From the NCBI GenBank assembly GCA_012520515.1, contig JAAYOD010000027.1, positions 920 through 64,919 on the forward strand: a DNA stretch of 64,000 nt, read 5' to 3'. Positions 18,451 through 43,577 of this stretch are shown piece after piece; position 1 is the stretch's first letter, and the number at the start of each line of letters is the position of its first letter. This stretch comes from Clostridiales bacterium. GTDB lineage: Bacteria > Bacillota > Clostridia > Christensenellales > DTU072. Position numbers and translations under genes: made by a program. The notes under the pieces were generated by a model. That model worked only from the letters and a program-made list of their open reading frames with translations, was not told the DNA's origin and did no database searches.

Positions 18451-21400
18451 CTTGTCTTTCTTCATTATAAAGTCAACGCTAACTGTGCCGCCGCCATTTG
18501 TTGCGGTGCTATTTATAAGCGCATTTAAATCTTGCGCAGTATAATATACGCTTCCGTTGTATCTTATTGCTATTAGCTCATAACCCTCAAGCTTGCAGCT
18601 AAAGTTATGGTAAAGGTCGTTTTCGCCGTTGTAGTGCTCTATCAGCTCTTGATATACCGTAATATCCAAATTAAAGCTGCCAGCGCCTGCCATTTTGCCG
18701 CTAATAACGCTGTTTGCGCCGCCGTTATGAATCACTTTTATATTGCTCACTGCAGTAAGGTTTGCAGAATTTACTAATTCTTGATTGCTTGGATTTGATG
18801 ATGTTCCGCTGTAATAATAGGTCTTACCTGTCAGCGTGACAGTGTTTGCAATGCTATTTTTTGAGTTGACAAGGGTTGCATTTATGCGGTGGCTTTGTGA
18901 AAGCTCTGCTGGCTGAATTAGCAAGTCTTCCACAAAGTAAGAGCTATAACCTTCTTTATAGATTGCTATATTGCCCCTATCTTGCACAATATAATAATTG
19001 ACATCGCCTTTTTTCTTGACATAATTTATATTGCCATCAGTAAAGTACATTAGATTACCATCATACTCCATAGTTATGGTCTTTTTGTCAAGATGGTCAA
19101 GAAGCATAGTGCCTGTTGCTTTTTGCGTAATAGGAATTTCTAAGAAGTAGAAATAACCATCTTTATCAGTGGTAGTGCGATATGTCTTATTTCCACCTGT
19201 TGTATAGACAACTACAGCGTTTTCAACAGGAATCTCTTCGCCGTCTGCAGATTCAAGAACCCTGCCATGAATTCTGCCTGTATCGCCTGTTTGAGCGATA
19301 TTGCCGCCACCTAGCAAGCTATCTGGGAACAGCACTATAGGAAGCGCAACGCCTGGGTTGTCAAACTCAGGTCCAGCAAGTCCGTTTATAATACCGGCAA
19401 GCGGTAGTTTATATATCTTTAAGTCTAAGTTAAACTGATTGCTAAGCGTTACAAGCAAGGCATGATTTTCCACATGGGCATATATCGTTCCTTGAGTATA
19501 GGTTAGCGTTTGAATCTCTATATCTATATTATTTGTAACAGATTTTGTTAGTTTTAGCTTGCCTCTTGCGTATTGATATCTATAGAATAACCCAGGGGTG
19601 AGATTCTCGCCTTGCGCGCCATTAATTAAATCGCTGCCATTTTCTATCAAGTCCCTAATCTTGCTTAGGTCACCGCCAATTATTCCAGCTAAGGCTGTAA
19701 TTGTTTTTATCAATGGTCCAATTGCGCCAAGCACTTCAGCAGAAGTTGCCATTTCTGAGCCATCATAAGGCGCATCGTCATCGGCATAGCTATATGGGCC
19801 TGTGGCATGAACTGCTGGATATCTGTCAAAGTACTCTTTTCTCTCCCAGTAGTCAGTACGCTTATCAAGGTATATTGAAAGCCCGTTTATCATAATACCG
19901 TCAAATACGCCGTTTATAAGTCCTAGCATATTTAGATTTACGCCGTTTGCGTTAACTGACAAGCCGCCTGTGCCGCCATAACCGTCTAAATCTGAAGGCA
20001 AAGTTATAAGTTCTGACATTGGAATATTAGTGCCAAGTATTCCTTCTCCTACGCCGTCATTTATCTTTATGACAAGTCCATTTGTAGGAACAGTTAGCTG
20101 CAAACGGTTATTTTGGCTATCTATCTTTATTGTGCCTTCAAAATTGGTCATGCCCTCATAGGTATTCATAACAAATTTAATACTATCAAGTTCAGGCAAA
20201 CCAAGTCCTGGCATAAGCGCATTTATTGCCGCTGAGTTGGGGCTAAGCGTCAGCGTTTTATTTGTTAGGTATAAGCTAACTATACCTGTTGTTTGCGTCT
20301 TAGTCGTTGTATCTTCTTTCTTATCGCGAAGTTTAAGCTCTTCTAAAAACTCCTTATATACGGCATTTGCGTCTAAATAATAATCAATCTTTGCAAACTC
20401 TAATCCAAGCAAGAACTTTTGTTTTGCGCTAATTGCGCTTACGCCTATATCAACTTTATCAAGCGTTTCAATTATTTCCTCTTGGACACTTTGTATCTCT
20501 TCTGGCAGCATATTCTCTACATCTAAGTCTTTAACAAGCTGATAAATTTCTTCAATGTAGCTTACGCTTCCAGAATAGTCTTGCAGCTCTCTAGATACTC
20601 TTTCTAAGTCGTCTATGTCGACATAATCTTGTTCTTTTAGTAACTTTAGATACCTTGTTAACAAATGCTCAACTCTGCCTATCTTAACTGCTATATCTTC
20701 ATAGTTGCCGTCGGTAATTGAGCCTGAATTTCTAAAGTCAAATAGGTAGTCAAAAGCTTCTTCATTAAGCTCTAGCCTAATTTCTCCTATGTTTTGATAA
20801 GAAGAGCTCTTTAGTGTGTTTTTAGTGCTTTCTGTGTTTTGACTTGCATCTAGCAAATTACCAAGCAGTCCGCTGACATCTACGCCATCTGGTCCAATTA
20901 AATCAGTGCCTGAAAGCAAGCTAAACAAAAGTCCTGCTATATCCACACCATTTAAGCTAAGCTTAAACAATCCAAGCGTCGATAAGTCTAGATAAGCTAT
21001 GCCGTCTACATAATAAATACCAAATAGCACTTCATCATTATAATATATCTCTACCTTAATAATGGAGTTATTAAAATCTTTTAGGTCTATGCCTAGTTCA
21101 AGATTGATAGTAAAGGTCATAATGGTATCTTGCAAGTCAAGCAAGATAGTATCTGGCTGTACATCAAGCAATTTTTCTAAGAAATCTTCCAAATCTCTGA
21201 CCGTTTGACTCTTTCCGTTTGTTTTGGGGTCTACGGTATTAATGGTGATATCCATAGTTGCGCTTAAATGCAAGTTTTCTAGCTTATCAATATTGGTATA
21301 GCTGTTTTTATCTATGTTATCGCCCACTATAACCATGTCGTCAATAGTGTTAAGGTTGTATCTATTAACTAAGTGAGTATAGCTCTTGTTAAAGTTATAC

Positions 21401-24400
21401 TTTATAGTAAATTGTCTATTTTCATCTAGCACAAGCTGAATGCCTGTTACATTGTCATTATCATCTCTACCCACTTTTAGATAGCTAAACACAGGGATAT
21501 GATTAATAATTTCAGGCAATGCGCCATTTGTTGTATGATTTAATGAATCAAGTAATGATAGCAACAATGCTCCAGTTATTGCAATGCTCACTTCTTCGCT
21601 AGAGCACATAAACAGTAGCATATTGCTACCAAAAGGCATATCTTTTATGCTTGGATAATTGCTTGCCACCTTTTCTGCATCGCTTTGCGTATTATCTACA
21701 TCGTTTATAGGCGCAGAGAAGCTAGCGTTTTCCACGCTTTCTAAAGGCTCATCATCAAGCTTGCCAAGTATTTCCTTTATAAGTGAGCCAAGGTCTATAT
21801 TAGTTACTGTAATCTTTGGCAATCCAAGCCCGCTTAAATCAACATAGACATCGCCTGTGCTGCTGCTATTTTCAGGACGGCCAATATATGCTAAGTCAAG
21901 AATTCTCTTACCGTCGCCCCACAGTATCTCTAATTCTAGACGGAATCTGCTAAGGTCTGCAAAATCAATATATGTCCTAAGAGCAAAGTCAATTTGGATA
22001 TCAAGCTCTTCTGTGCCCATAATCCTTAATCCTAAATTATCGATAAGGAATGAAGTAATTTGCGTTATATCAATAACGGTATTAAAGTCATCATTTATGT
22101 GCAATGAGCTATTGACTTCGCTAACCCAAATAAATGTATCAAATTGTTGATACCCAGTAAAGAGTGTCTCTTGCTTTTCTCCAAAGAACAGTCTGCTTGG
22201 ACCTAGATTAATATTAACTTTGCCAATGCCTATGCTAAAGTTAAGTTTTGAGGGCACAACTTCATTATCTTGCCCATCTAGTATAGGCGCATCAATAGGA
22301 ATGTTTAGTAGCAATTCATTATTGACAAAGTCAAGTTGCAAGGTAATATTTCCTAGCTGCTCAAAGTCAAGGTTAAACATACCAGATATTATAGCTTGCA
22401 ACAAGCTGCTTGCAAGTTTAATACCAATAGTGCCTTTACCAAAGGTAATGCTATCAAATATAGAGCCCCAGTCAACATTGGCGAAAGACCCTAAGCTTTC
22501 CCCTTCTTCCAGCTCATCGCCGCTTGCATTGTAACTAGCGTTTTGCACAATGTCATACCTTGATTCGCTGTTAATTAGCATAAAGAACATATTGACAAAG
22601 TTAAGGTTAAGGAAGTTGTGTCCAGCTTCAGGGGTTAATACTATCTTGGTGTCATGAGCGTCGCCGCCATTTATATAAATCTTGGGGTCCCACTCACTGC
22701 CGTCGCCTGTCTCATAGTTTATTCTGCCGCCCACAAAGTAGATATTGAATATGTTGACATCATGGCTGTTGTATCCGCTTACCATAAAGTCAAGAGCCGT
22801 AAGCGACAAATCAATATCCACAGCAAAGTCAAGGCGCAGCTTGCCTTTTAGGTCTTTTAAGAAACGTAACTGGAATATGGTAGAGAACTGTTCTTTCTTA
22901 AATAGCGCTGACCAATCTAGTATATGGCGCAGCATATCAGCTTCTAATGTTAAGCTAAACTTAATAGCAAAGCGGTTTGCAATTTCATCAATCTTAAAGA
23001 AATCTCTAAACTCATCTAATGACTCCTTAAGCTCTAGCGCTTGATGCAAAGTATTATATTCTTGTCTATCAAGACTAATTAAGGTATCATGCAGTAAAGT
23101 TAGGTCAAATTCATACCCAGCTTCTCCCTTTGCCGTATCTCCTGTTTTGCTAAGGTTTACATTTAATCCAAAATCTTGGCCATATTCTATACTAATGCCA
23201 GACCTTGTAAGCAGCATGCTTAAGATATCATAATAATCAGCTTGGAAGTCTTGCCCTGACAACAGCGCATTCATAACTTCAACTAACAAGTCAACGGTAA
23301 GAATAAGCGATGTATCTTGCTTTGTCATACGCACAAGCGCCTCTACTGCGTTGCTTAATGGTACATTTTCTGCGCTGTTTTTCAAAAGATACAACTGCTC
23401 AAATGCGTTTAGATCTTCGCGCCCATTGGTATAAGCTTTTATTATGTCGCTATTTATAGCAGCAACTGCTTGGTTTTGCTCTTGGTCTTCTTGACTGGAC
23501 AAATAATCAACACCTAAGTTGGACAACAGTAACTCACCTAAATTAAAGTCACTTATGTTAAGGTTAAGCTTACTATCAAACACTTCGCCTTGCACATATA
23601 TTTGATTGCCATAAATCCACACATGGACAATGATTTGTTTAAATCTTGGTATATGTCCGCTAGTATCATGGTCAATTAGCATATATGTAAGGGTAATGTC
23701 GCCAATTATGCTGTTATTTATCTTATTTATGTCTTGACTAAACAAGTCTTTAAAGTTTATACCAAGCGCGCCTGATATAGTAACTTGCAAGGTGTGCGAC
23801 TCTAAGAACGCAACATCTAAGTCAACTGTCAAGTCTTCCATATTAATTAGACTGCCAAAGTTAATTGCATTGAGCACATCTTGCATATTTAAGCTACCTT
23901 TTAACAGCAGGTTACTTAAAGTAGCATTTATATTAACTCTTAGCGTCAAATCGCTATACTCTGTATAAGTTTCTTTTTCTTGGTCATCGATAAGGTCTTT
24001 AATTGTAGAAGTTGGCTTACCGTTTTCATCAATGTAGGTAGATTTTACATCAACTTTTACCGAAGTGCTTAAGTTGCCGTCAACTTCGCCAAGTATCTTT
24101 ATCCCTAAGCGAACATTGGCTTGGTCAAACCTTTTTTCTTCCGCCTTTAAGTAAACATCGTTAAATGTAGATACCACTATGATAGAGTTTGAAATAAGCG
24201 ACTCTAATTCAGAACTGCCCATAAAGTTTACAACGCCCATAAAGCTGCCTGGGAAGCTTACTGCTTTTAAGTATTGACTGCTTAAACTCATAGCTTCTCT
24301 AAGTTCAGTCAAGTTGTTTGCATTATTAATTTTTTCTATAAGGGTAAGGTCGCTAACAATCTTGTTAAATTCCTCCATGTCCTTATAGTCTCCAAGCGTC

Positions 24401-39400: not shown

Positions 39401-42400
39401 GTAGCGTCCCAAATTTCGCTATACCTTTCTACAATATCATTGTAGTTACTGTATGCGCTAGCTTTTATGATATTGGAAAACAAGATATCCAAATCGGTAT
39501 CTACAATACCCATGGAATCATTAACTCTCTTTTGAATTTCCCTTCTTTCTTCTTCTAGCGCATCCACATCAAAAACAACTGTGGCGCCTGACGCTTTAAC
39601 TGGCTCTATTGTGGCATAATATTCATACTGGCCATTGGAGAGATTTCTCCTATTAACAATAATATTCATGCTAGAAAAATCATAACTATAATCTTCTAGC
39701 GGAATTAATTCATTAGAGAAGTCATCATAATCAAAGTAAAGGTCTAAGTGTTGCTTAAAGTACACATATATTAAAGTATTTGTATCGTTTGCTTTAGGGC
39801 TAGGTTTTGGTCTTACTATATATTTATAGCTATCTGTTCTATAATTTCTAGCCGTTGCGTTTGTTGGATAGAATGTATCCATAAAATACTCTAGCACAGT
39901 ATCGTCGTATACCATATCTAAAAGGTTGCGCTTAGAGTTATAGTAAAGCTCTTCATCTATATCCGCATGACCTGTAGCGTCATATAGATTGTTCCAAATT
40001 AGCGCCATTGCGCCATTGTAAGTGCCTTTAAGCTGAGTAATAGACAGTGGATTTATGCCAAGATAGGACAAATCGATATAAGCTGTGTCATTTGTGATAT
40101 AAACGCCCAAAATTATTTGATAAATAAGGTTATCAAATGCCTTATAGCCAGAGTTTACTTGACTGCTTCTGTCAAATATAACTAAGGAAATATCGCTCTT
40201 TAATAAGTCATTTATATTGATATTGCCTTTAAGCGCGATTCCAAGCTTTAGCCCTGTATCATACCAATAGTCATTGTCTATTTGAAGCGCTATTGCCTTT
40301 AAGATATCTTGCAGCATTCCTTCAGAATTTTCTTCGCCGCCAAATAGCACACCAAGGTATTCATTTAACTGTTCAGGAATCAAAATCTCTTTGTTTGCGT
40401 CCACTTGCAAGGTGATTTCTAGGTTAACTGACACTACCAAATTTTTGGTGTATTGCTCAAGGGACACAAAATCGCTTGCCACAAATGCGCCTACAAAGTC
40501 AATATCATTACCTTTCTTTAAGTTAATAGTGTCAATTAAACAAATTTCCAGCACAATTACTTCAATATCTTCATTAGTGCTGTCCAAAATTCCCAAATGA
40601 AGTTTTATATATTCGCTATCAACTAATTGCGCCGTTTGTTGCCTATTACCATGCTCATCTAATATAAATTCGCCATTTTCATCTTTTCTGTCGGTGTATT
40701 TATAAAGCACCTTGCCGTCTTCATCTCTAAGCCATTTTGTGCCTAAATGGAATTGCAAGCTACCGTTTACTTTTGGCAATTCACTAGTAAAATCTATACC
40801 AGCAAGCCCAGCTACTACGCTAAGTATTTGGCTGTTTACCATTACATTTAGCACATCGTCTTTAATTAGTATGCCATCTATAGCGTCACCAATCAGCTTA
40901 AGGATATTGTTAGATTCACTGTCGCCTATGTCCACTTGACCATTCTCAACGGAAGCGTTTTCAAATAAATTAAAGCTAGCGTTAGCAATGCCAAGCATAT
41001 CTGCTATGCCGCCTAAATCAAGGTTAATTCCGCTAAGAATTTTGCGTATGCCCACATTTGGCACAACTAGCTTTGGCAACCCGCCGTCAACAATATTAAG
41101 TAGCGGGAAAACTGCCTTTAGCTGTGTTGCCAAATCATACTTATTCCCCGATTCGTCAGGCAGTCTTGGCTCTGTATCTATATATAACTCATCGCTTATG
41201 CCGGAGTAATAAATACTCATAAAAGGATATGGATGAGATAATGTATATGTAGGGTCAAATTTAAGCATTTCTTGGTCGTTTATATACAAATCGACAAGTA
41301 GCGCCGTATCGGAAAACTTAAGCAGATTAAGTCCAGCTTGAATTCTATAAGTGATAGGCAAACGCATACCTTCTGCGCCAATGCCAAGGGATACAAAAGT
41401 ATTTTCTATAAATGCCCCAACTAAACCGCTAAAGTCCACTCCGCCGTCTGACTGATTGGTGCCAATAGTGATATTGCCTTCAATGGTGGCTCCATATTTT
41501 AGCTCACCCGACATGTCTCTGAAGTTAGCGCGCAAGTTAGCTGCATTTTCCATAACATTGCCTTCACTATCAATGCCTACTGCAGACAAGTCCATATAAG
41601 GCGGCACAAAGTAGCTAATGCCTGTGCTATATGTGCCATCTGCCCGCTCTTCGCCAATGCCTAGGCTAAGCGACAAGCTCTCTGTAATATCAAGGCGTAA
41701 ATTTATAGAATTAAAGATAGACGCTGTATCAAAACCAATAGACACGCCCTGAATTCCTACATTGGCATCTTTAATAAACATACCTAGTATGCTGTTTAAC
41801 GCATAGTTGTCAAGGTCTATAGAAAATTTGCTGTCGTCGCCTTCAGGGAAATGCAAATACTTAAAATCTTGAGGGTCGCTGCTGTTTGTTTCAACAAGTA
41901 TGCCAATGAGCTTCATTATGTCAAAAGACGCCCCGTCTTCCCCATCTGCCGCCGCATTGTTGCCACGCGTTGCTGAAGTGGTGTTTGCATAGTAAGGGTC
42001 TATATATCTCATAAACTTGCTAAGCAGTCCGGGTATTTCACTGTCGCCTGCAAGAAGCTTGGTTAGGTTAATGTTAGGCAGCCTTAATTGCGGCAAAAAC
42101 TGTCTTCCGCCGCTAGTTAAGTTATGCGTGTCGATATACGCTGTACACATCAGCACCGTTTCACCCGTTCGCATTTCAAGGTCGGGCACAAGATATATCG
42201 CCGCTATCTCTACATTATTATAAGAAAATGCCACCTTGGCATAGTTATTTTCATTGTCAAATAAATCAATGGCAAGCGCCACATTTACATCAAATCGATA
42301 GCTTGTAGCGTCGCCTAGCTTTAGAGGCATTTGTCCAAGCGCGCCAAGGTCGCCTAACATATTGCCTAAAAGAGAATTTAACGTAACTTCTTCGCCTGGA

Positions 42401-43566
42401 TTGGTGTTGGTAATATCCAAAACTCCGTTAAACTCTAAGTTAGTTAAGCTTCCCTTAACATAAGTAGTCCCCTTTCCCCTTTCTCCTAAGTTAAGACCGT
42501 CAAATCTTATAGACACGCTGTCTTTATTGCTTGCGGCAAGCTTAAATGGACTAACTTCAAAATTAAAGTCAAATTCGCCAGTATCTGTTACTATATCGAT
42601 ACCAAAGCCATTAAAAATATAATCTTGTTTTTGTGTGCCGTCAGCTTGATTGACTGTACCTAATTGAGTTACGGCATAGACATTAGTTGTCATAGACGGC
42701 CAGTCTTTTGCAATAATGCTGGCCAAGCTAAATCCAAACAGCTTCTCCATAAGCCCGTCAAGGTTGGGCAATCCAAAAGCTTCCCAGCCGATTATAAGCT
42801 CAAAAAACCCAGGTATGCTTATCTTTCCGCTAGTTATCATACCCATGATAAAATCAAGCTTTAGCCTTTGGTTTATGTACTGCATCTTTTCATCGGCGCT
42901 GTACTCCACTATGCAGTTAGAGTTGTCAAAGAGCATACCCCAAAGCAAAGGCACAAAGCTGGCAATAGCGTCAATGTCCACTTGCCCGTGCAAGCAGTGT
43001 CCCACAAACCTTACAATATCAATGTCAGCTTGGTCTAGCGTATCTGAAAGCAGCTTGCCCAAAGTAGCCATATTGAGCTGCTCTGTGTACATTCTCCTGC
43101 CGCCAATATTTAAATACAGTGTGGATTGTCCATAGTATATTCCAACCTTAACAGTGTCGCTGTAAACATCTTTAAGCTCAATAAATACATTGCTTCTGTT
43201 GTTATCTTTTAAGTTGATGTTAGCTTTTACTGTAAGGGAAAAATCGTCTTTTTTCTTTATAGCTTTGGAATAAACTTCGCCTACCTTTTGGTATTGAGTA
43301 AGCTGAAACCTTAAAACAAAATCGATATTATACCACTCAGGGTCTGTATAAATGGTGTTGTCCATATTACTGATGGACTTGCTTATGTAATCCCAAGCCG
43401 TAGCTTTGCTGACAGAAACTAAGCGGTTGGTAGGCCCGCTGTCAATGATAGGCCCTTTGCCTGTATCTGTATCCGTTTGCGGTCTTTCTGAGCACGCGAC
43501 AAGACTGGCCATTAAGGCTATACAAAAGACTAATATTAAAATTTTGAACAGTCTATGTCTTCGCAC
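7462..43566 (-). CDS. Giant (12,034 aa) lipoprotein-type cell-surface protein, modular, function unknown
   Basis: A single ORF of 36,105 nt with no in-frame stop. It has a GTG start 6 nt after AGGAG and an N-terminal lipoprotein signal peptide. The ORF track shows no alternative-frame ORF above 139 codons across the interval. The architecture is described in the sub-features. Confidence 0.9.
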   Translation of the reverse strand: MRRHRLFKILILVFCIALMASLVACSERPQTDTDTGKGPIIDSGPTNRLVSVSKATAWDYISKSISNMDNTIYTDPEWYNIDFVLRFQLTQYQKVGEVYSKAIKKKDDFSLTVKANINLKDNNRSNVFIELKDVYSDTVKVGIYYGQSTLYLNIGGRRMYTEQLNMATLGKLLSDTLDQADIDIVRFVGHCLHGQVDIDAIASFVPLLWGMLFDNSNCIVEYSADEKMQYINQRLKLDFIMGMITSGKISIPGFFELIIGWEAFGLPNLDGLMEKLFGFSLASIIAKDWPSMTTNVYAVTQLGTVNQADGTQKQDYIFNGFGIDIVTDTGEFDFNFEVSPFKLAASNKDSVSIRFDGLNLGERGKGTTYVKGSLTNLEFNGVLDITNTNPGEEVTLNSLLGNMLGDLGALGQMPLKLGDATSYRFDVNVALAIDLFDNENNYAKVAFSYNNVEIAAIYLVPDLEMRTGETVLMCTAYIDTHNLTSGGRQFLPQLRLPNINLTKLLAGDSEIPGLLSKFMRYIDPYYANTTSATRGNNAAADGEDGASFDIMKLIGILVETNSSDPQDFKYLHFPEGDDSKFSIDLDNYALNSILGMFIKDANVGIQGVSIGFDTASIFNSINLRLDITESLSLSLGIGEERADGTYSTGISYFVPPYMDLSAVGIDSEGNVMENAANLRANFRDMSGELKYGATIEGNITIGTNQSDGGVDFSGLVGAFIENTFVSLGIGAEGMRLPITYRIQAGLNLLKFSDTALLVDLYINDQEMLKFDPTYTLSHPYPFMSIYYSGISDELYIDTEPRLPDESGNKYDLATQLKAVFPLLNIVDGGLPKLVVPNVGIRKILSGINLDLGGIADMLGIANASFNLFENASVENGQVDIGDSESNNILKLIGDAIDGILIKDDVLNVMVNSQILSVVAGLAGIDFTSELPKVNGSLQFHLGTKWLRDEDGKVLYKYTDRKDENGEFILDEHGNRQQTAQLVDSEYIKLHLGILDSTNEDIEVIVLEICLIDTINLKKGNDIDFVGAFVASDFVSLEQYTKNLVVSVNLEITLQVDANKEILIPEQLNEYLGVLFGGEENSEGMLQDILKAIALQIDNDYWYDTGLKLGIALKGNININDLLKSDISLVIFDRSSQVNSGYKAFDNLIYQIILGVYITNDTAYIDLSYLGINPLSITQLKGTYNGAMALIWNNLYDATGHADIDEELYYNSKRNLLDMVYDDTVLEYFMDTFYPTNATARNYRTDSYKYIVRPKPSPKANDTNTLIYVYFKQHLDLYFDYDDFSNELIPLEDYSYDFSSMNIIVNRRNLSNGQYEYYATIEPVKASGATVVFDVDALEEERREIQKRVNDSMGIVDTDLDILFSNIIKASAYSNYNDIVERYSEIWDATYNSTKTPQSVLTLMDTQKGNWQVRSEDAEGNYIVVSTTDEILTFLEAVYLKSNAYKTLERTTSSILASEMRIDKDGIYGGKYKDMRIYEIRQTQEFQQLYIERLAQAVKEAVDSQYKARNISESELKAVTYYRIKNRRVMMENVVVAANASANRQPIVISQNSDIDEYNNQLNPSQNGALPTARFDANAAIPNQIPITLALQYNAHAISLVVGEAAITTLLKIAGAETIASIFRINELALKLDFNSGLDVDLSVVIEDTYTITVSIGNIRASLDPSKREDYKPIINTDEYKQTTDGVPDGIYVEASLELNLSNQTEDGSDKNAYDFTNAVSKIFSNSAFFKSELDEIYQTTKNNSSISASETTIKAAAWDALGEFLEANKDIDEDYEKKIKEKQSRYNAAATEIKTNIDKKPEYASSTPGDDIHKALAWDKLVGGAVLVVLDEIGMRIMAEFLGDQDASLLFHIQAWLDFDNIYKSIFKITVTRIIAQNDQSDVVLTVIYDGTSAGVNDATLTGDIYISTQLFGIGNVVIKNLDNVFQGIMDVFDNTFITDLLDTDLIKDITKIIDNIGKDSENEESEEPDPSQNSSASMAVKNAAVQSVARAYIQFMLKDGNIKIGIAKAAVVEVLNVLGLDLSQSFEEMEFGLEAYLRFKEELTLGAKIYLDKAGNVVLDGENYATEMGIKVGGINVGFDKQEIDIVQTVEQDGETKYYYDNELVDYDEMEELTNVGIALSGVTSFELIVDENSNNSIYNFDYVVSMFTRYWLNGRDPEIGMQLHMDNVDIFSQATYFNISANINLDTLKNLKNIEIFLSLTSKTNQEEYESEYNKNLRSVLNDVLRKSKYNKAEAYVAYKNLLGITGDTDGVAMLEEMERSLSSEIAHLTSNAEINAYYWNEVMGRAGDYLLGDVASIYFIIDDEGILDVYIDLAFLNADAIRIADARSILKVIAAEFGIILDDEATPSGSEQDIKNAAMNAPGAASAIAKHIVLSVATGNEVQPLLLKVTGAAIFGLLQAMGLDLERYFGAYTPSIELELLNNQEILNLNIILEDLFSLKAAINYPKINLTNSISQAIEKRKYTTIDENWDADIKIFMEGELDLGALDPEDLGDNLGHLSTINFGELLRGLLGDESFALDVILKTINSVALNLNFRLEAKINIVKLYSQIKMYLEEMKEYDKLSEAQKTQTAKPSINLAALGVEAYLEITGKFRLDESEEEKLIIGIYLIPQGDTLNLYLDLNALNMGRVKISDIQNTATALTNRISDLFTKDDDSSDEEEEVTKYNFEGTLGEVLAVIKMRNQVEENIDKTKTYEYYNASDINGGQGSFENDIRNAAGLPDGAVAFTDYIKGVIGNSYGFTVTAAANVLIKILNEAFNDEKSRSVRSFRALIENIIREDQVADINAIYSKIQTMDEALVLYDLSKADAWSYLVGEIFGEAERIEAQNTYATAQEVLQDIYEDGYAYVRYNPDTKKDETVEVDGILTVYNNMVGHLSNAMVDIETYNQYLSEYNKLLNAYNKLLENDVDLYPETITAQEKTPPSEPAPITTVNIRTRAWNKYYENLHAQAERAEQLLGLDLENEVLAYAREYTAYFVKGISLENLVREARAKLNAMNEAVEKARAYADERLARGEISQAQRQQEEDMFAYDYFTGKNTWNSEDAKLYVSLYTIHKASNNNNDIIGKQRAWQDIKQTISSVYSTIIDAMTAVNAIMVEQDSDYQLSAGAFIINDGLYEEYNHTQSLIWKATVWDIILDTLCASDDRKLIIVDDTEDSGTMPEPTPPKSDDDLSRADILERLSKYNMHTDYYLVTMLTDVANARRSITKTEYLYTAWKYYYQDVQRVLSGADGYIYQYIFNYEYDSNGKIIAAVPATETKEINGVTIEMIKMAAIQINNEKEYKNNVYQNQLSYLDALYVDSADKTAENIITAAGDYGQIQLNILYNNSLIGVEGEVANLNIGINFITAGLNINDNDLTKRVKKIEENEFGEISETEVMQVIDSEYLDSLGFVEIDETFTYIYASMDIDFSWDMAENAKYDFSDLIASMLGGIEFNHNTISLAPVLQVLDGIKGEFRIRLEAKINLFDIINGSDASITLFKLEDNGEYKQLLQIIYGTHDEGSFVYVDAESFNIQKLYIVDAIDYVRSLLRNSPYPVGIDYNEEGSLSRFVVAAMSKAYLEQDINSGAQNAAGSQHPSIDLLIKDSGFVVQIGANAIYSLLSFLGMGDVRSMISKIGEPGIEINVFGQDLFEFNLELFSITESGQAVQSQYIRLGVALNNVTLSLDQDAQISFDEQRDLEWDANGDPVGFARMREQLPPVRIETTILLDLDANEYSTEGAGSVPLDELEPLKSLLKLKQGDGDDYLLLYTILDIALLIKGNTKMTIAVDIKANLDFGDGTNTDYLQNLIDNSEIQIQLRVYRDANGIVINSNRVYATITYYEQNLYIDLSNLGGDKIYIEKVGEKIFGSSAQNSALNAAILDLKNAFGNSAKIGASIDITSSGLFLIVRKAAIVSLMQILGLSGFDMFDEAAVQLYIIGKEKGENDFGNSLRVGLQIGVGTNSMQPGVVDPNGNVDLNEILGIGVCLDGILVGFTKADLAVSGTEEYKKIGVVDTLYVTTHLALSLTADSGVYTFGQLLKMLLANSTLGFERDLAPVLELVEDLDSSLYLGVSLTVNINAILDELQAQIGLYRNYADSVNKTNALILLTYIRGDVYIDTSGISSGNFFLGKVKLSNIMDIIEILTSSGDESNLAFIEDMNDYQGLMNPQNRSSVYDDLDAVVATARLVIDVINGVMVELVDNVLITIADALLDLRDADNNKIYLSDYVKGITMPELTVGVTNSATIYIDIGLPSAVYNDSEYIAFTEILNKTKSDYLMDDIWVEYDNDDWKEILKDNDLYKLYSISNEEKIEYVNNWLKGRTDAADICQEFIGAFSSRHDKLTLGDIKALVFNYIVILAYKDISDATSTMFSLSFEREESVLAPKLIAYYNDHLKQLAWNQYYQYLVANDDMAMVNVMNTMLQEQNGNKTLAYNMFVASPALTRTQREALAIYYNENANKKDIDKLFDIAPDQGTAYIELIINLVSSIFIRQNAWLTYLERHIYQSAAGEYIYTGLYEEMYRYQKAYAWDAYYETAYTYEKALMLNALQYAQARYGTNHSAHVIKAYAFDKFKEYLAEFASLMETGLLEDNVHILKYIIYYQSMLAYYGADYDVTVGENYLTSDEMYDVLIKTVEGIQEYNLANSIMLNQYKETAIAYDLIFERDNLYITVTDIYQDVANASTPSEIVKDIRARIARKLGQSELSKISNQFADLIVNQSDSATCASRFVARVNGTWSASLQEYIVDSQELNELLASYKTGAYSIKETSWNRLVEYELASIIHTDINLNGEGGDSPFENSNNLQGSQNSFEYNIKKYFEQKGYTITINNLLPLYLAYAELSVSGGQEYVTYFEQAKAYTDNLVTQNYAYFVNICNDYGYGEDGYLVDIYKAVRTFARLIKIFDEHNIVLQQSLMERLVAIANKDFTNLSASAYLEFMSDYKGISQEDNQKLLANINYIYNMYSYLLDTEKDVYTATLSQVNQSLRLLLQLDSIEQNAIRFKGSVDIIDIEQLPKVHLYLAYYEILSRIGENNEHVVWVNNFLDGELAGQIAPEKYSLAAIKLNLLLDRLQSQGQDELVEYCLQIIREFLASQFQNLSIEVWQARMVDELYTHSTLNEAETAAEVGRITQLLYRLRDKNHAKRIAWDNAYFYQSTQQAVKQLNDIINSIVFERLYSSDNYLVVLNDIMIKAYTNEIDTELNAIFAQLGAYSLENVQDILRYDQGLQAESSAYYLDIVAKKNYLDSQLSAVMSNISGQAYSQWTIIEKAIAFRDIINVASQNPQSLIAEITNYIAIYQREIKNFIAENFDLVLALGAQAISASVSFYDEYLIALYNELYARISNYLSFIEAAQNPESILYGIEQNPTPSAKSLFDFAMLISQAVENGEIVIASADLALYNFVDTLIADHIEIISYNLEVLPQSAKLQIAEYLLVKLYHGTYNFVSGVLATRFEDFVQSLYNIANNNYNLVMDQFELDLCSLFAAYFDNIYNINAELVEAVSYAQAHGATNSQKMYEFLFTSKLNGYSFGSIIDGYTVIFRRYNEVNFDSLYLRSANFANAFDAIYNNIKSEIYNNNPSLIGLITEVEYNEQISQGQRTAALIEKIRNTGLDITVQLSNYIDEYQSVYAALFTDRSLLTVDILQTYLSDMEEYYKTSFGSDWQHTKDKLDIVDEILNAPDAQDIRSYIISSCGFVEKSNFLSTYLNMVGKLSNKQLVDLGKLTLNQIIVGDIATNIDTDMSHLISALGSYSLVNAWSILGFDEAFRQQSAQLFDEIIDYKDRYQNQLSTAMSSVNGQSYATWKVYDRAFAMNSYSEKEKLNSDGIAEIMAISNSYTRAEAITLLSVYDKVTKLIDSSILNQDAISFVTSLDSVLAEALVQRLQAYQEVINASIDTYSYQIKQLSSAKIFELYNIVNSALDAQEFVLLTEDIDLYLAIEHIVQNYGDIESMTDAVKIDTAFMVAKQLFAGDYILTTSIDNLVNAFVESYVAKCNQNSAQYRALSIELDKYILLENYQKVNSVLNSVSLNNAASIFVTEFMELMSATLHASLLSYTEGQLLSELNAVAATNIDSIVAIITSFGAGNIPLNSVDSQYYNIAVRLINACGAYANWNNQARFKAACILSLDCFVGNYTLGADLNTLWTDFVELYYEKCVENLAAYNNVIAEIGIETLVSNGAKYFEQIKDIIDNLTLIAEGIAATGKESYANMFRLAQSIEGHFDSLIDNYADIYESNANISYQSMIYRNVTAARELADIYNELRDVAMSEPSVLAIFIALESSWQLSVEDKALYLPGVVEAIMATASDLTNYQLALAKYEEIKYSGFAKAFSELYNEIIQLASLSPSLVHIVNDAQMENKGDVILEALYLPTLIQNIRESGAAINMLLSSALSKADAYLGSIFLERNLLTREIVEKTLGDYKDMEEFNKIVSDLTLIEKINNANNLTELREAMSLSSQYLKAVSFPGSFMGVVNFMGSSELESLISNSIIVVSTFNDVYLKAEEKRFDQANVRLGIKILGEVDGNLSTSVKVDVKSTYIDENGKPTSTIKDLIDDQEKETYTEYSDLTLRVNINATLSNLLLKGSLNMQDVLNAINFGSLINMEDLTVDLDVAFLESHTLQVTISGALGINFKDLFSQDINKINNSIIGDITLTYMLIDHDTSGHIPRFKQIIVHVWIYGNQIYVQGEVFDSKLNLNISDFNLGELLLSNLGVDYLSSQEDQEQNQAVAAINSDIIKAYTNGREDLNAFEQLYLLKNSAENVPLSNAVEALVRMTKQDTSLILTVDLLVEVMNALLSGQDFQADYYDILSMLLTRSGISIEYGQDFGLNVNLSKTGDTAKGEAGYEFDLTLLHDTLISLDRQEYNTLHQALELKESLDEFRDFFKIDEIANRFAIKFSLTLEADMLRHILDWSALFKKEQFSTIFQLRFLKDLKGKLRLDFAVDIDLSLTALDFMVSGYNSHDVNIFNIYFVGGRINYETGDGSEWDPKIYINGGDAHDTKIVLTPEAGHNFLNLNFVNMFFMLINSESRYDIVQNASYNASGDELEEGESLGSFANVDWGSIFDSITFGKGTIGIKLASSLLQAIISGMFNLDFEQLGNITLQLDFVNNELLLNIPIDAPILDGQDNEVVPSKLNFSIGIGKVNINLGPSRLFFGEKQETLFTGYQQFDTFIWVSEVNSSLHINDDFNTVIDITQITSFLIDNLGLRIMGTEELDIQIDFALRTYIDFADLSRFRLELEILWGDGKRILDLAYIGRPENSSSTGDVYVDLSGLGLPKITVTNIDLGSLIKEILGKLDDEPLESVENASFSAPINDVDNTQSDAEKVASNYPSIKDMPFGSNMLLFMCSSEEVSIAITGALLLSLLDSLNHTTNGALPEIINHIPVFSYLKVGRDDNDNVTGIQLVLDENRQFTIKYNFNKSYTHLVNRYNLNTIDDMVIVGDNIDKNSYTNIDKLENLHLSATMDITINTVDPKTNGKSQTVRDLEDFLEKLLDVQPDTILLDLQDTIMTFTINLELGIDLKDFNNSIIKVEIYYNDEVLFGIYYVDGIAYLDLSTLGLFKLSLNGVDIAGLLFSLLSGTDLIGPDGVDVSGLLGNLLDASQNTESTKNTLKSSSYQNIGEIRLELNEEAFDYLFDFRNSGSITDGNYEDIAVKIGRVEHLLTRYLKLLKEQDYVDIDDLERVSRELQDYSGSVSYIEEIYQLVKDLDVENMLPEEIQSVQEEIIETLDKVDIGVSAISAKQKFLLGLEFAKIDYYLDANAVYKEFLEELKLRDKKEDTTTKTQTTGIVSLYLTNKTLTLSPNSAAINALMPGLGLPELDSIKFVMNTYEGMTNFEGTIKIDSQNNRLQLTVPTNGLVIKINDGVGEGILGTNIPMSELITLPSDLDGYGGTGGLSVNANGVNLNMLGLINGVFDGIMINGLSIYLDKRTDYWERKEYFDRYPAVHATGPYSYADDDAPYDGSEMATSAEVLGAIGPLIKTITALAGIIGGDLSKIRDLIENGSDLINGAQGENLTPGLFYRYQYARGKLKLTKSVTNNIDIEIQTLTYTQGTIYAHVENHALLVTLSNQFNLDLKIYKLPLAGIINGLAGPEFDNPGVALPIVLFPDSLLGGGNIAQTGDTGRIHGRVLESADGEEIPVENAVVVYTTGGNKTYRTTTDKDGYFYFLEIPITQKATGTMLLDHLDKKTITMEYDGNLMYFTDGNINYVKKKGDVNYYIVQDRGNIAIYKEGYSSYFVEDLLIQPAELSQSHRINATLVNSKNSIANTVTLTGKTYYYSGTSSNPSNQELVNSANLTAVSNIKVIHNGGANSVISGKMAGAGSFNLDITVYQELIEHYNGENDLYHNFSCKLEGYELIAIRYNGSVYYTAQDLNALINSTATNGGGTVSVDFIMKKDKVRSVTFSGTIKAYDEVEQKWIVPSSDDYEIWITYQSKTMGVVDYYDLSPENYNINVDKDGNFSFTAIEDTSTTPATRGFDLEKVGEISYVFKIRSTKYDNLNIAATGLQKGDSMSFVATQDSSDTTRATQGIISLTETYTQDSVTYASNFNVDVNLGERKKHWADDIKNNSLIQRIRIRLGADIIDGEYHDEGDNGNQAYDNSYKDVLDNIQYEVSKVADRYNSYTYIELWLDSDSLNTILLGALGMLYNMIGLTDVAANTTISAEDISLKDKTKSEDFNPSFYTDEELLIKREKLVSDFVDRWRGRYNEAQDIRIGDKVYTVRGAYLQAVNSAGTKLSAGLVHFLICEYGLTMIKGGHITLPFTDQPISVNDFVGFALYSPKVYTELIGMIPYAGGVLSTILSTVFEGIDKLLEDVSTLLAHVLPIQSAYSLFGSKDMPGSPLSSYKTYFDNDGQVVQLANVAVSDGSLKSVNIIRDVNTYDMSVYAKITLNSSAQAGYLERITLFLNGASFSQASELQDLDDDYHEKNQMDPFFAMQGGDWNYEYWKSTGKVGKFFTKTTSYETIRTPVADITTDDGDPVGEYYHNITLRNQGVTDIDRLFTKERDSLSEYETYEVIDEQGNKTSEYMMYDIVQTDSGKVFASDVAYHDDPSATYSIKSVDIKHMVIIREGEITGNVYFTDSTFTNVQTTYSAYPVYVDENFKLTTDTGNGNVRCTTEMFMQYWIANTNYNSYAVINEYYIDPYTDEKVIYNQHFIYDNEANPKEDIYQEIDIANNGIGFRKVADVSFTNDKFYYIAYDKLTEIWTKKRYLPPTSITFHDPFDMTDFTAFGGTWANSDGATGERRNIDPSISLVDILPNRYYANFTDGTSKGTQGVNIAWDVSALSFDALGTGDGTERLKGYIGNAVYSTIAVKVEPFKIDITDENAPPILQELTEIEIDPYNFDHDQFINSLPEFFYYEYTSGIGEKTKTKTYLFNDLVWSLDYQVIDGAMKFTSLDYSNGNKNTYIDLSFRAYGEDNTGASFASNTPYTNIQIPIKVKDYTVKQVEKAVEGSVGGIVNDEKTPSSYHGNISFNALNADDPYGIMKAIADGTMVEKEDGTMEIVPNAFDKVMVNHTYLDESTGKYVNTVIDNWEIVLGSFRVLRNADGSSLASYDNTNSEEQEYTVTYKVRDGIGNTQTIKILVRIESNEINNDLSYVYKDGAKVLLGSNEAVEIITPYTSNRNASLMERLSLAKDIYVVYASGYEEKASLGDDYTITTEIVAMPSQNEQRYTLTSVTIIKGDDFSYVIPNMDYKANKDYTVYAVIGKLGYTQVEMDLLITEKLFDNLNRQYSENRAITKAYDMLEASLNKYEKSLLKNILVSVRNDKVRAWNTWYNRYLDEESIYHSPADALKMDIMLAKAKLTYLNISYNEAKVLAYRQFVSDNTITVTNPITRVASVAIEKVYDEIVASNPELSVDTLQRMTFDAWYNDYTRKYCTLTRRVESRVAIGAETVTISRTNGILNELADNANIWFQNQDQTINTEVVWLIKALGIDISDSYDGMLLNSDIILKDNLLGNQLVRGVGIQVSQVIIEGIQIGNDRAIAINAYDESTIDQFLNFNYYNCDLSGNTNAFYISIMLGNSGGSILDIPSGAQGFNSAIWELATTSQEYTGVHNTDLDKLYKVKWSYVDDTNNNGDYTDDGLTYHNNGQIGAHKIQITVQNKGYDTNPNWRSNVIIDLTKVSKFYDGSYPITNIQADATITDIAIVNDNISVTKDATYQGQNARYILALDPSKVDLSEVITFKVTFANGSTMDLDGYIDIPEDNTEFYNKASLTVANGLVFGDKHNNKQSFDVVLRNTALREFTEISSIMYKNSQGEVIDLSTDFLCGAYDNLENYLPVTATIEGVRNNHLDQETLSVTFRNIEKYYSDGLTAQGTKPKATAYIGDKTFGYVLREVSLNIYAEELISIESIVYKDGTEEDYEKAKSINVDPYGAINIEWLQENYTRARIKTNMLADGQEPILGVEKIVSLNLNMQDIDLEDYANVNGNNFAAKSYTVNHGMGNTVENGADGSFDIRFYGTISVNLVDSNITSLSIYKGDEEISHTDPTMSYDLEGTIYNPFNFNSPDYKYKITYASGMRELVTGQNIVWKNLDNIIYNEHGGVYTVQALISAGSISQTIEVRVKVNKAIATDIVVIHGQENVEYNYLNMAPDNTLLNLEIEPYDGFVKLPEKVLVKLEGDEENTTQEVFVEWHYQDILSRMTIAGGSYTKANNRAAKATIYVLVDSYDENGNLVKVRAGEQTLDVDVIVKDRSIKHYEVSYDGQNYIALEDLVYSAKYNSDYYTNELLINPYTLQNAIIADQKFNTNAWTYSENFGERIHKYRYLDEDRKEVKGTITSIADDQNITYFDKNKVIVIAKYNEKTDSYNYYEKDGRTPASQVHLSMILGIYESQDNFAYFTSVRVACNGKDFEGNDYYRYYTLRKDNYVIYDSDKQGKTLTTDLYKGRNVTLEITVGEAMVDGINKNSLTCAQDALSLRVAPLKNANGDFEKDLRVRILDMSYQSGLDKDIYYVDIYGLIDSFDTSVVYPEKGLTQREILGKDSVKYFRTDGGVREEIVKYTFDNIYYNGDNINDIYFEIISMSGSGETFSVELKELRRSGGKINCSGGVGKLVVTFGNDDESFAGGKQVFNIPICYVDRSIEQIMFNEDNAPNFTTFANSSNELVSGFEFDPFLVYNNSVNGFAQFEQGYLKTGQYGVKLKLRASDYDIYTGTHITVLEKGVHYIYFDLIADQPGSDKLGLRFNDSRVKFSYKGGYYTVDAVIGQGTARQSITYPVNIKSREIDKTKATMGFTPNVFKSDPNTFKIRVYDYIGQANINRALINDIFAVPTTEFQVYFVGFEDPFIYTLDRAATDQGEFKLTEEEQDHIMSFRMDTTQSINYKGGSLRFYMTIPGYGMGAKGQQEAEVLFQLAEQYVMFVNAAAENGQEYIGDDPYKLGQSMADYLKDGLSSDELDKLEEAFGYNKTENLYHITNPYYFILQDGIKMPDKVYAYVANKEVYEEYNHILANEGLNAQAKIDDLIQDHGSKISVYLVNSLWSGGSMGRVTINYNDTYRTTSFTMPIDDQVFKLRFKVDPLIFRTEGPIDAFTSTTTYGPDDIILLPTTSGVRRVVDGITYSNYLNVTYNTDGHNLLKDKDGNQVLDDEGNVVYDGNVVFDQYYSYVVHFTKPNGEEVVVTINDIDGGGTYRDNYNKWYFGAIKFGENNQYATMTLGGKGGQVIRWKFISTSTRKWINSNVPNLLADLSNTEFTLPKNLIQIFNTVGGTNIQRTAASDYIPIEYYNLRSATSDTMGKYGINIDASDYSFTMNASTYSNVQSVDFGKKVLEDKSEVQILNDNQIALLDWTVLGRRAYPSYSKKVGGTIIISGIGSTTITYITPPKTGLIDGLLTEYTSGFSEAYISDVDSNIHNLYAPNTNETSINDNTNINYVNAGQGVSPNYEYPSGRWGANSANRIIYNSNTGTTTQTVLPTIKVLQGSKFELHNLPILGMNYIYGKERNPRLLGATTYSRGNDITGMYLPWYKADVYEIISQDFGIVNGEFYGTKRKLSDGDNDFMFIDTCASDGTNYLLTCNFELQLITEDDPEILRKSADNGTGGSLARRNALFTIHIIITIVESF
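19027..19278 (-). other. Carboxypeptidase-regulatory-like (transthyretin-like beta-sandwich) domain
   Basis: GRIHGRVLESADGEEIPVENAVVVYTTGGNKTYRTTTDKDGYFYFLEIP (G8097 at nt 19276-19278) fits the G.V.d..G.Pi..A.V......t.TD..G.F.f..l pattern of CarboxypepD_reg domains. A second, similar unit lies at 18241-18450 (VTFSGTIKAYDE...VDKDGNFSFTAIED). Confidence 0.6.
19380..23640 (-). repeat. Six further copies of the beta-rich module (second block, after the helical core)
   Basis: I-Y anchors lie at aa ~6651 (HVWIYGNQIYVQGEVFDSKLNLNISDFNLGELL), 6942, 7227/7241 (GDVYVDLSGLGLPKITVTNIDLGSLI, 21781-21860), 7517 (FGIYYVDGIAYLDLSTLGLFKLSLNGVDIAGLL, 20941-21030), 7765 and 8028. Spacing is ~250-300 aa. Confidence 0.65.
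24145..30850 (-). other. Alpha-helical core region (aa ~4240-6475), rich in A/L/Y/N/E/Q
   Basis: The translation changes character at ...SEYIAFTEILNKTKSDY (aa 4243, nt 30840) and again at ...STFNDVYLKAEEKRFDQ (aa ~6475, nt ~24145). Between these points there are no beta-module signatures, only long amphipathic heptad-like stretches (for example AYAWDAYYETAYTYEKALMLNALQYAQARY). The helical assignment is by composition only. Confidence 0.55.
24190..28120 (-). repeat. Divergent tandem duplication inside the helical core (units of ~538 and ~767 aa)
   Basis: FAQLGAYSLENVQDILRYDQGLQAESSAYYLDIV...SAVMSNISGQAYSQWTIIEKAIAF (from aa 5183, nt 28020) aligns with ISALGSYSLVNAWSILGFDEAFRQQSAQLFDEII...STAMSSVNGQSYATWKVYDRAFAM (G5725). 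The offset is 538 aa. AALFTDRSLLTVDILQTYLSDMEEY (F5609) aligns with GSIFLERNLLTREIVEKTLGDYKDMEEF (F6376), an offset of 767 aa. The sub-motif KLYHGTYNFV..FVQSLY / QLFAGDYILT..FVESYV / CFVGNYTLGA..FVELYY occurs three times. The nucleotide sequences are diverged. Confidence 0.7.
30850..43150 (-). repeat. Ten divergent copies of a ~300-aa beta-rich module (N-terminal block)
   Basis: Each copy has a recurring protein signature. It starts with h.h.L.A.INL.d (FSLTVKANINL, YFNISANINL, FRLEAKINIV, FRIRLEAKINLF, VDIKANLDF, LTVNINAIL). About 40-60 aa later comes h-I-Y-Y...(L/V)-Y-(I/L)-D-(L/T)-S..LG..KI.I....L..LL. The I-Y anchors are at aa ~143, 457, 785, 1155, 1888, 2300, 2610, 3496, 3821 and 4091. 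Examples: TAYIDLSYLGINPLSITQL (40021-40110), NLYLDLNALNMGRVKISDI (near 35650-35760), NLYIDLSNLGGDKIYIEKV (32041-32120), DVYIDTSGISSGNFFLGKVKLSNI (near 31200-31320). Confidence 0.7.
43492..43566 (-). other. Lipoprotein signal peptide with lipobox (LVA-C25)
   Basis: MRRHRLFKILILVFCIALMASLVAC|SERPQ has a basic n-region, a hydrophobic core and an L-V-A-C lipobox. The Cys25 codon is at 43492-43494. Confidence 0.8.
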
Positions 43567-43577
43567 TATACGCTCCT
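43564..43577 (-). promoter_or_regulatory. Ribosome-binding site and GTG start of the giant gene
   Basis: The minus strand reads AGGAG (43577-43573), cgtata, GTG (43566-43564), a 6-nt spacing. Confidence 0.8.

Follow-up and report, generated by a model that had tools for sequence, protein, structure and literature searches.

Giant extracellular proteins of the Bacillota include staphylococcal Ebh and the SasG-type stalk adhesins. Such proteins, and likewise Giant1-5 of Apilactobacillus kunkeei, contain recognizable domains (a β-solenoid head, immunoglobulin (Ig)-like or helical-bundle repeats), and their repeats typically resemble each other and differ in number. Giant1-5 are extracellular, elongated and several thousand residues long, with repeats presumed to hold the distal functional part away from the cell (PMC12863079). 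Other giants from Clostridia, exceeding 10,000 residues and predicted from mammalian gut metagenomes, are described as arrays of RCC1, Listeria-Bacteroides, YG, dockerin and LRR domains, and were proposed to bind host or prey surfaces (bioRxiv 10.1101/2023.11.21.568195). Long proteins of another design, the repeating-β-groove proteins, are represented by TamB, YhdP, AsmA, VPS13 and ATG2. Here we compare with these systems a protein encoded in a stretch of 64,000 nucleotides from a Clostridiales bacterium (the window; positions 920 to 64,919 of contig JAAYOD010000027.1, assembly GCA_012520515.1), in which a single open reading frame (ORF), hereafter the giant, codes for 12,034 amino acids (aa).

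The giant, whose mature product has a computed mass of 1,345 kDa and a pI of 4.4, contains 14 copies of a previously undescribed α/β module of ~290 residues that matches no known family or solved structure in the resources searched. As a giant repetitive cell-surface protein it would be of an already known kind; those resources contain no description of the module or its family, nor of a fixed 14-fold architecture or an N-terminal lipid anchor in a protein of this size.

Like Giant1-5, the giant comprises several thousand residues, would be extracellular and elongated, and comes from a Gram-positive, animal-host-associated lineage. Unlike the repeats of Giant1-5, Ebh and SasG, however, its copies are 11–21% identical in pairwise comparison, are fixed at 14 with positional orthology and follow a predicted N-terminal lipid anchor. 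It yielded no Ig-like module hits (Big_x, Rib or SasG-type) and no near-identical, copy-variable repeats, and Pfam detected in it none of the RCC1, Listeria-Bacteroides, YG, dockerin or LRR domains that make up the other Clostridia giants. It resembles the repeating-β-groove proteins in its great length, in a predicted N-terminal anchor at one membrane and in its numerous, strongly diverged units, which are fixed in number and contain amphipathic antiparallel strands. The first half of its unit is predicted to be a five-strand meander followed by a helix and a loop, and the sheet would be continuous from unit to unit, a plan that may be comparable to theirs. There are also differences: the giant has no sequence or structural match to these proteins, its unit has ~290 aa, ~11 predicted strands and three conserved amphipathic helices, its putative anchor is a lipobox cysteine instead of a transmembrane helix, its host would be a monoderm without an outer membrane, and a β-rich region of 4,100 aa follows the array. 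Finally, LolA/LppX-type lipoproteins, ApoB and vitellogenin resemble it in having curved antiparallel sheets with helices, in some cases as lipoproteins, and appear among the top non-significant Foldseek hits. With TM-scores of ~0.1, probabilities ≤0.33 and root-mean-square deviations (r.m.s.d.) mostly >15 Å, no relationship to them is demonstrated.

The repeat, its copies and their orthology

A sequence-only reading of the window had proposed that an ordered signature recurs about 16 times within 19380..43150, in two blocks. Self-BLAST of the giant returns only a handful of internal pairs (two pairs of copies), and the copies are therefore very diverged. When a hidden Markov model (HMM) was started from four anchor regions and refined by iteration, it settled on 12 of the 16 proposed anchors. 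Because sequences included in a profile inflate their own scores, each copy was then sought with a profile that excluded it. Ten of these 12 copies were recovered at their proper positions, with 8–25 bits, the other two being weak, whereas the best score among 50 locally (block-) shuffled copies of the whole protein was 5.8 bits. Alignment of full inter-anchor segments reveals that the repetition extends beyond the ~110-residue core, with the whole ~300-residue unit recurring as an ordered series of motifs. In the consensus of 326 modules from the family described below, these motifs read A-N-L-D-L-x-D, L-L-G-I-Y-Y and L-Y-I-D-L-S-G-L-G-x-P-K-I-K-I, with L-L further on; Tyr 55 is conserved in 84%, Tyr 48 in 70% and Asp 57 in 63%. 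The scores of the left-out copies and the family consensus both show that the recurring signature is real.

A family-wide HMM (326–357 modules) added the anchors at aa 6651 (54 bits) and 6942 (96 bits). Of the proposed copies, 14 are confirmed, with anchors at aa 143, 457, 785, 1155, 1888, 2300, 2610, 3496, 3821, 4091, 6651, 6942, 7241 and 7517. The anchor at aa 7765 is not a separate copy but the second half of module 14 (aa 7761–7892, HMM columns 119–269, 13.3 bits), and that at aa 8028 scores −0.5 bits. A profile of the orthologous post-array region around the latter aligns with module columns 13–84 in the right register, but with P = 0.16; this region may be a degenerate fifteenth core. 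The spacing of 250–370 aa had been read correctly and the overall range closely, the array running from aa 107 to 7892 (19891..43248). The two blocks, on the other hand, are a single array: positions ~4,237 and ~6,470–6,520 are adjacent in orthologues, and the apparent gap is a 2,221-aa lineage-specific insertion in module 10.

The family was collected by an exhaustive search of 1.84 billion representative proteins with a profile of the 14 window modules. Only one family is returned, consisting of 75 clusters (at 50% identity) with E ≤ 0.001, 18 of them with E ≤ 1e-30. A search of GTDB species-representative genomes with the N-terminal 1,200 aa of the giant yielded no relative. Most members have 5,000–7,900 residues and 8–14 matched stretches. 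They are labelled Clostridia or Eubacteriales and publicly named ‘hypothetical protein’, with the exception of MFA5448907.1 (‘carboxypeptidase-like regulatory domain-containing protein’). BLAST shows the giant to be colinear over its entire length with members P0002–P0007 (7.1–7.9 kaa, 22–30% identity), except for three stretches (aa ~1200–1830, ~2640–3320 and ~4240–6470) that have no counterpart in these orthologues and whose flanks are adjacent there. According to the family-wide HMM, P0002, P0004, P0006, P0007, P0012 and P0021 each contain 14 contiguous head-to-tail modules of 270–300 aa, and other members 13–15. In nearly every case module i of the giant best matches module i of P0002, P0004, P0006 and P0007, with 45–150 bits compared with 20–30 bits for paralogues. 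Gene length is near-invariant within clusters at 90% identity (7,879 aa in nine independent assemblies; 7,264–7,268 aa in 19), and these are therefore real genes. Judged from the sequences, the 14-fold architecture predates the divergence of the family, and the array is ancient and fixed.

Distant members of 4,265–4,300 aa (P0033 and P0034) carry 12 modules (L083 4650..24556; L084 10001..30080). In both loci the array gene is preceded by a two-component system or a sigma/RsgI pair and followed by a gene for an N-terminally anchored MBG_2/MBG_3 protein of 2,363–2,384 aa, and then by one for a ~368-aa lipoprotein. Here the architecture may be divided between polypeptides, the distal part being encoded by a gene of its own; the MBG-domain gene has no BLAST similarity to the giant's C-terminus. 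Behind several family ‘fragments’ (P0035 and P0013), the giant gene goes on in further, overlapping ORFs (L087 1431..5877; L088 518..13794). Frameshifts or assembly errors have therefore split these genes in the public data, and the size distribution of the family is under-estimated.

The lineage-specific insertions total ~3,400 aa and lie in loops or linkers of modules 4, 7, 10 and 14, which they split by ~350, ~555, ~2,220 and ~170 residues, respectively; a further insert of ~100 residues separates modules 4 and 5. Once the insertions are subtracted, the array has 4,312 residues, the same as in the orthologues. The larger gaps between anchors had been said to hold helical inserts. They are indeed insertions absent from the orthologues and are probably helical, their helicity being judged by composition only: Gly and Pro make up 4.7% of the insertions vs 9.7% of the modules, with helix-favouring windows at 0.34 vs 0.14. 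The large insertion in module 10 is shared and spanned by P0001, a fragment 64% identical to the giant, and has no Pfam, NCBIfam or PDB sequence match. It is internally duplicated, with aa 5699–5787 (26206..26472) matching aa 5161–5249 (27820..28086) at 33% identity (E = 6e-15). Self-BLAST also finds longer, weaker pairs in it, such as aa 5400–5700 with 6090–6460.

A helix motif, A-x-A/V-W-D/N/Q/S, occurs six times in the giant vs 0.18 times expected from shuffles. The sites, at aa 55 (43402..43404), 1755, 1815, 2810, 3132 and 4507, fall in the N-terminal region and the insertions and include KATAWDY, KAAAWDA, KALAWDK and KAYAWDA. A small helical unit, also found at the giant's N-terminus, may thus be the building block of the insertions.

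Predicted fold, anchor and distal region

Two AlphaFold2 models were made. The first, of module 13 (55-row alignment), has a mean predicted local distance difference test score (pLDDT) of 71.9 and a predicted TM-score (pTM) of 0.50. It begins with five strands, a helix and a disordered segment (residues 90–128). Next come two strands, a helix and three strands and, beyond a stretch of poor prediction, one last helix. The second covers 689 residues (module 12, module 13 and the core of module 14; 25 rows), with a pLDDT of 64.8 and a pTM of 0.45. Here the strands at the boundaries are long (13–16 residues) and confident, the pLDDT stays at 57–85 straight across the module 13/14 boundary (residues 411–640), and only the acidic linkers are consistently disordered.

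Coevolution was analysed by mean-field direct coupling analysis (DCA), with scores computed for entire ladders. In each of the 232 rows, module i was joined to the first 90 columns of the module after it. With so few rows for 372 columns the analysis is underpowered, and only replicated signals and top ladders were trusted. Four hairpins (β1–2, β2–3, β3–4 and β4–5), all antiparallel, were each recovered twice with z-scores of 4.5–9.6. In the best non-local ladder (z = 6.8, rank 5 of 65,703 positions), the first strand of a module runs antiparallel to the last long strand (column 242) of the module before it, in agreement with AlphaFold2. We can thus propose, with moderate confidence, that each module opens with a five-stranded antiparallel meander and an amphipathic helix and that, beyond an acidic, disordered linker of ~40 residues, it contains about six further strands and two further amphipathic helices. 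With similar confidence, the sheet is predicted to be continuous between modules, through pairing of each module's last strand with the first strand of its successor.

An extended β-solenoid or a groove-like rod had been suggested, as speculation, for the array. The inter-module ladder and the continuous prediction across the boundary make an extended structure plausible, but not one in solenoid form. All well-supported strand pairings are antiparallel hairpins, unlike the stacked parallel coils of a β-solenoid or parallel β-helix, and AlphaFold2 predicts hairpin meanders with helices; neither Pfam nor Foldseek returned a β-helix hit. The solenoid was accordingly rejected; a groove-like rod is still conceivable.

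The linkers (HMM columns 82–122), otherwise variable, contain the dipeptide NA, often as P/A-Q-N-A, in 143 of the 326 copies across the family vs 94.5 ± 7.3 in shuffles. The dipeptides QN (2.6×) and PQ (2.0×) are likewise enriched; one example is the linker at aa 7273–7314 (21625..21750). P/A-Q-N-A could be a site of processing, modification or cross-linking.

The module had been left unassigned to any Pfam family, and this assessment was correct both for the whole protein and module by module. Pfam searches of the giant (E ≤ 0.1) found nothing except sub-threshold stretches outside the array, and those of 55 single modules (E ≤ 5) returned 19 families, each from one module and none recurring, with no Ig-like match and no ligand-binding family. 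Within the same limits there was no hit to AsmA, AsmA_2, TamB/DUF490, DUF748, DUF3971 or their relatives. NCBIfam has no match to the module, and among PDB sequences there is none to the module profile (E ≤ 10) or to the giant's C-terminal region. The exhaustive profile search recovered only the giant's own family and no AsmA-like protein. Both AlphaFold2 models, which are of moderate confidence, were compared with the PDB by Foldseek, and neither gave a hit with E ≤ 0.001, be it to TamB, VPS13, ATG2, Lpt proteins, a β-helix or another neighbour. The best hit was the ApoB β-barrel (E = 0.012, TM-score 0.11–0.15, r.m.s.d. 21 Å), followed by LptD (E = 0.06–0.6, TM-score ~0.08), vitellogenin, LolA3, LmcA and porins, all non-significant. 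The single-module model had no hit in a viral structure library. An AsmA/TamB-like relation, which had also been raised, thus finds no support in these searches.

At its N-terminus, the giant has a putative signal peptide, MRRHRLFKILILVFCIALMASLVAC, with the positively charged n-region, hydrophobic core and lipobox ([LVI][ASTVI][GAS]C) of a lipoprotein. All 29 family members with an intact N-terminus have the lipobox cysteine at residue 24–38, and in these proteins the first module starts 85–120 residues in. The region between the anchor and module 1 (aa 26–106) was considered as a possible capping half-module, but it has no profile similarity to a module half.

Beyond the array, sub-threshold matches hint at β-sandwich domains in the C-terminal region: CarboxypepD_reg (aa 8099–8146), Big_9 (aa ~9478–9557) and CARDB (aa ~10072–10120). 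The first corresponds to the public label of MFA5448907.1, which we did not adopt for the giant, as the stretch scores 22.3–25.6 bits vs a Pfam gathering threshold of 32.3; it lies outside the array and covers <1% of the protein. In relatives, the part beyond the array has Big_4 (P0039, E = 7e-15; P0023, E = 1e-4) and, below threshold, MBG_3 (P0039, E = 0.0077). The distal parts of the family therefore seem to carry a surface-protein flavour. The last 18 aa of the giant (7465..7518) form a basic and then hydrophobic tail, ending in LARRNALFTIHIIITIVESF, that is not shared by the orthologues, whose C-termini are β-like and unconserved. The tail is too short for a standard transmembrane helix and contains no recognized sorting signal.

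Readings of the architecture

A lipid anchor at one end, an array of interlocked β-rich modules and a conserved β-rich distal region together lead us to favour, at slightly less than even confidence, a rod that is anchored in the membrane and carries the unassigned C-terminal region of 4,100 aa out past the cell wall. The 14 modules would assemble into one long segmented rod, whose ~150 strands, if they lie across the long axis, would give it a length of the order of 50–70 nm. The lipid anchor would hold one end at the cytoplasmic membrane, and the rod would cross the thick monoderm wall to present the conserved C-terminal region, at or beyond the surface, to a partner surface. The insertions, if helical, would be ornaments on the rod that leave its structure intact. 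The giant gene also appears to have its own consensus promoter and ribosome-binding site, which we count in favour of this reading.

Several points weigh against the rod. The surface localization and lipidation of the giant are deduced from its sequence alone. Since both structure models are only moderately confident (pLDDT 72 and 65; pTM 0.50 and 0.45), the rigidity and length of the rod are conjectural, as would be an open sheet face. The contact between strands 5 and 8, across the linker, is weakly supported (pair 68–179 ranks fourth; ladder 66–177, z = 4.2). No adhesion or binding domain scores above a curated threshold anywhere in the giant, which also lacks a cell-wall sorting signal; family members differ in their C-termini, and no conserved gene neighbour across relatives gives a functional clue. 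In addition, position-specific modules that are 11–21% identical and fixed in number are unlike the homogenized, copy-variable spacers of classical stalk adhesins, which suggests position-specific roles.

Such roles would also fit an arrangement of beads on a string, in which globular domains, each running from linker to linker, are joined by flexible acidic linkers into a floppy multivalent tether or ligand array with a different ligand at each position. The acidic linkers (median 41 aa) are predicted to be disordered in both models, the span of three modules has a low pTM (0.45), the confident segment in it (residues 411–640 of 689) itself runs from linker to linker, and position-specific conservation is as expected of specialized domains. 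However, the coevolution of strands 5 and 8 hints at a contact across the linker, inserts of hundreds of residues are tolerated exactly at linker or loop sites, which is easier to picture as loops from a continuous body, and no ligand-binding family is detectable in the 55 modules. We consider this arrangement unlikely, though worth keeping in mind.

Slightly less probable is a bridge-like conduit, in which the continuous sheet would curl into a hydrophobic groove. Lipids, glycolipids or other hydrophobic cargo would pass along it from the cytoplasmic membrane through the wall, reaching the surface or a partner cell held by the C-terminal region. All strands are amphipathic, strictly so, and the first half of the module (five-strand meander, helix, long disordered loop) is predicted to follow the plan of the repeating-β-groove unit. 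As in those proteins, the units are highly diverged, fixed in number and position-specific, and the N-terminus would be anchored at a membrane through the lipobox. The Foldseek hits, although non-significant, are mostly lipid-handling β-sheets (ApoB, vitellogenin, LptD, LolA3 and LmcA). Against a conduit stand the lack of any Pfam match of the AsmA/TamB/DUF490 type in the whole protein or the 55 modules, of an AsmA-like protein in the exhaustive search and of a TamB, VPS13 or ATG2 hit by Foldseek, whose best hit has a TM-score of ~0.1. Furthermore, the hydrophobic face is probably shielded in part by the three conserved amphipathic helices of the module, every module is broken by a disordered acidic linker, and the host lineage, placed by LysS taxonomy and regarded as monoderm, would offer no second membrane to bridge. 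The boldest form of this idea, to which we give the least credence among the structural readings, is that the module is a new fold whose 14 units form a continuous β-sheet ribbon tens of nanometres long. This would be a new class of envelope-spanning machine in monoderms, a lipid-anchored analogue of the bridge-like lipid-transfer proteins that moves hydrophobic molecules through the wall or between cells, having arisen independently of AsmA, TamB and VPS13 or diverged too far to be recognized.

That there is no real repeat or gene, the signature being a compositional (low-complexity) artefact or the 36-kb ORF a misassembly, is extremely improbable: the low pairwise identity of the copies and the two BLAST-detectable pairs would fit an artefact, but the left-out copies score far above the shuffle maximum and all 14 modules recur in independent orthologues, which come from many assemblies, while misassembly is countered by those assemblies, by an independent ENA contig that reproduces the first 787 aa and by P0001, which spans the large insertion.

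Locus, host and significance

The coordinates of the giant gene and its parts are given in Table 1. The promoter-like site lies ~60 nt upstream of the start codon. The flanks consist of ordinary Bacillota housekeeping genes (ecfA-ecfA-ecfT-truA, lysS, greA, tmk, holB, a SpoU methylase and a sigma factor). The best of 563 GTDB hits to LysS, at 76–77% identity, come from metagenome-assembled genomes of uncultured Christensenella, Christensenellales and Clostridia of guts and digesters, and the host is therefore placed as an uncultured Christensenellales-type bacterium. The Christensenellales are regarded as a monoderm lineage, in which no second membrane would be expected.

Upstream of the giant gene and in the same direction, 44678..48028 (minus) encodes a 1,116-aa protein that likewise carries a lipobox (…VITGC) and, in addition, a Big_2 domain and a core resembling transglutaminases (E = 8e-15). 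One might speculate on a functional link to the giant, such as cross-linking or processing of its Gln-rich linkers; in the relatives examined, this gene was not found beside the giant gene, which there has upstream of it a HAD hydrolase gene, a LOG-like gene or no gene at all. The space that separates the giant gene from the lipoprotein gene contains two small ORFs (43812..44234 and 44357..44668, minus), which correspond to the C- and N-terminal halves, respectively, of a mutarotase of the TTE1925 family (NF052227; E = 2e-28 and 2e-14, both well under the curated cut-off). The mutarotase gene is disrupted and probably a pseudogene, and the split is also present on the independent ENA contig L001.

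Downstream, plus-strand genes converge on the giant's 3′ end, among them two in 2719..6502. One of these encodes a 522-aa AAA_5-like protein that matches the PADLOC candidate defence family PDC-M26A (E = 1.5e-37), and the other an adjoining DUF2357 protein of 722 aa. The pair looks like an McrBC-like or candidate anti-phage system. The four ORFs that flank it have no Pfam or PADLOC match.

Table 1. Positions in the window of the giant gene, its expression signals and the segments of its product, in order of translation
Feature	Residues (aa)	Window position	Strand	Remarks
Promoter-like site TTGACA, 17-nt spacer, TATAAT		43626..43654	minus	12/12 matches; consensus match only
Shine-Dalgarno GGAG		43573..43576	minus	6 nt before GTG start; read from sequence
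Giant ORF	12,034 aa	7462..43566	minus	single ORF; GTG start
Lipoprotein signal peptide (predicted) MRRHRLFKILILVFCIALMASLVAC, lipobox L-V-A-C	to Cys25	43492..43566	minus	from sequence; mature product continues SE
N-terminal region, anchor to module 1	26-106	43249..43491	minus	holds helix motif KATAWDY
Module 1	107-408	42343..43248	minus	72 bits; orthologue of module 1 in P0002, P0004, P0006, P0007
Module 2	417-723	41398..42318	minus	family HMM and positional orthology
Module 3	732-1090	40297..41373	minus	family HMM and positional orthology
Module 4, first half	1103-1200	39967..40260	minus	leave-one-out and family HMM
Insertion at module 4 linker, probably helical	~1201-1550	38917..39966	minus	absent from P0002-P0007, present in P0010
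Module 4, second half	1551-1738	38353..38916	minus	HMM 87-281; 66.7 bits
Insert between modules 4 and 5, probably helical	1739-1839	38050..38352	minus	two A.AWD motifs
Module 5	1840-2149	37120..38049	minus	family HMM and positional orthology
Module 6	2177-2529	35980..37038	minus	~55-aa insert, probably helical, after strand 1
Module 7, first part	2530-2762	35281..35979	minus	HMM 4-148; family HMM
Insertion in module 7, probably helical	~2763-3317	33616..35280	minus	orthologue comparison and family HMM
Module 7, second part	3318-3442	33241..33615	minus	HMM 171-277; 25.7 bits
Module 8	3448-3753	32308..33225	minus	family HMM and positional orthology
Module 9	3759-4040	31447..32292	minus	family HMM and positional orthology
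Module 10, first part	4041-~4240	30847..31446	minus	family HMM and orthologue colinearity
Large insertion in module 10, probably helical	~4241-6461	24184..30846	minus	2,221 aa, 252 kDa; lineage-specific
Module 10, second part	6462-6586	23809..24183	minus	HMM 155-267; 13.3 bits and orthologue colinearity
Module 11	6587-6890	22897..23808	minus	family HMM and positional orthology
Module 12	6902-7183	22018..22863	minus	family HMM, AlphaFold2, positional orthology
Module 13	7185-7480	21127..22014	minus	148 bits; most canonical copy; first structure-prediction target
Module 14, first half	7478-7590	20797..21135	minus	family HMM and AlphaFold2
Acidic insert at module 14 linker, probably helical	~7591-7760	20287..20796	minus	HMM match split
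Module 14, second half	7761-7892	19891..20286	minus	HMM 119-269; aligns with end of P0004 module 14
C-terminal region	7893-12034	7465..19890	minus	4,142 aa; conserved in orthologues

More than 99% of this 1.35-MDa protein has no match to a curated family or a solved structure. With its defined signature, its family of 75 clusters and its defined architecture (lipobox, 14 modules, conserved C-terminal region), the module could already be registered as a new domain family. The fixed number of modules and their positional orthology set the giant apart from ordinary repeat adhesins and indicate that its length or position-specific surfaces matter. Its host lineage, the Christensenellales of guts and digesters, is ecologically important, and the cell surface of these bacteria is poorly characterized. 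If the sheet is truly continuous, the array would be among the longest β-sheet rods known, and whether bridge-like conduits exist in monoderm bacteria would become a directly testable question.

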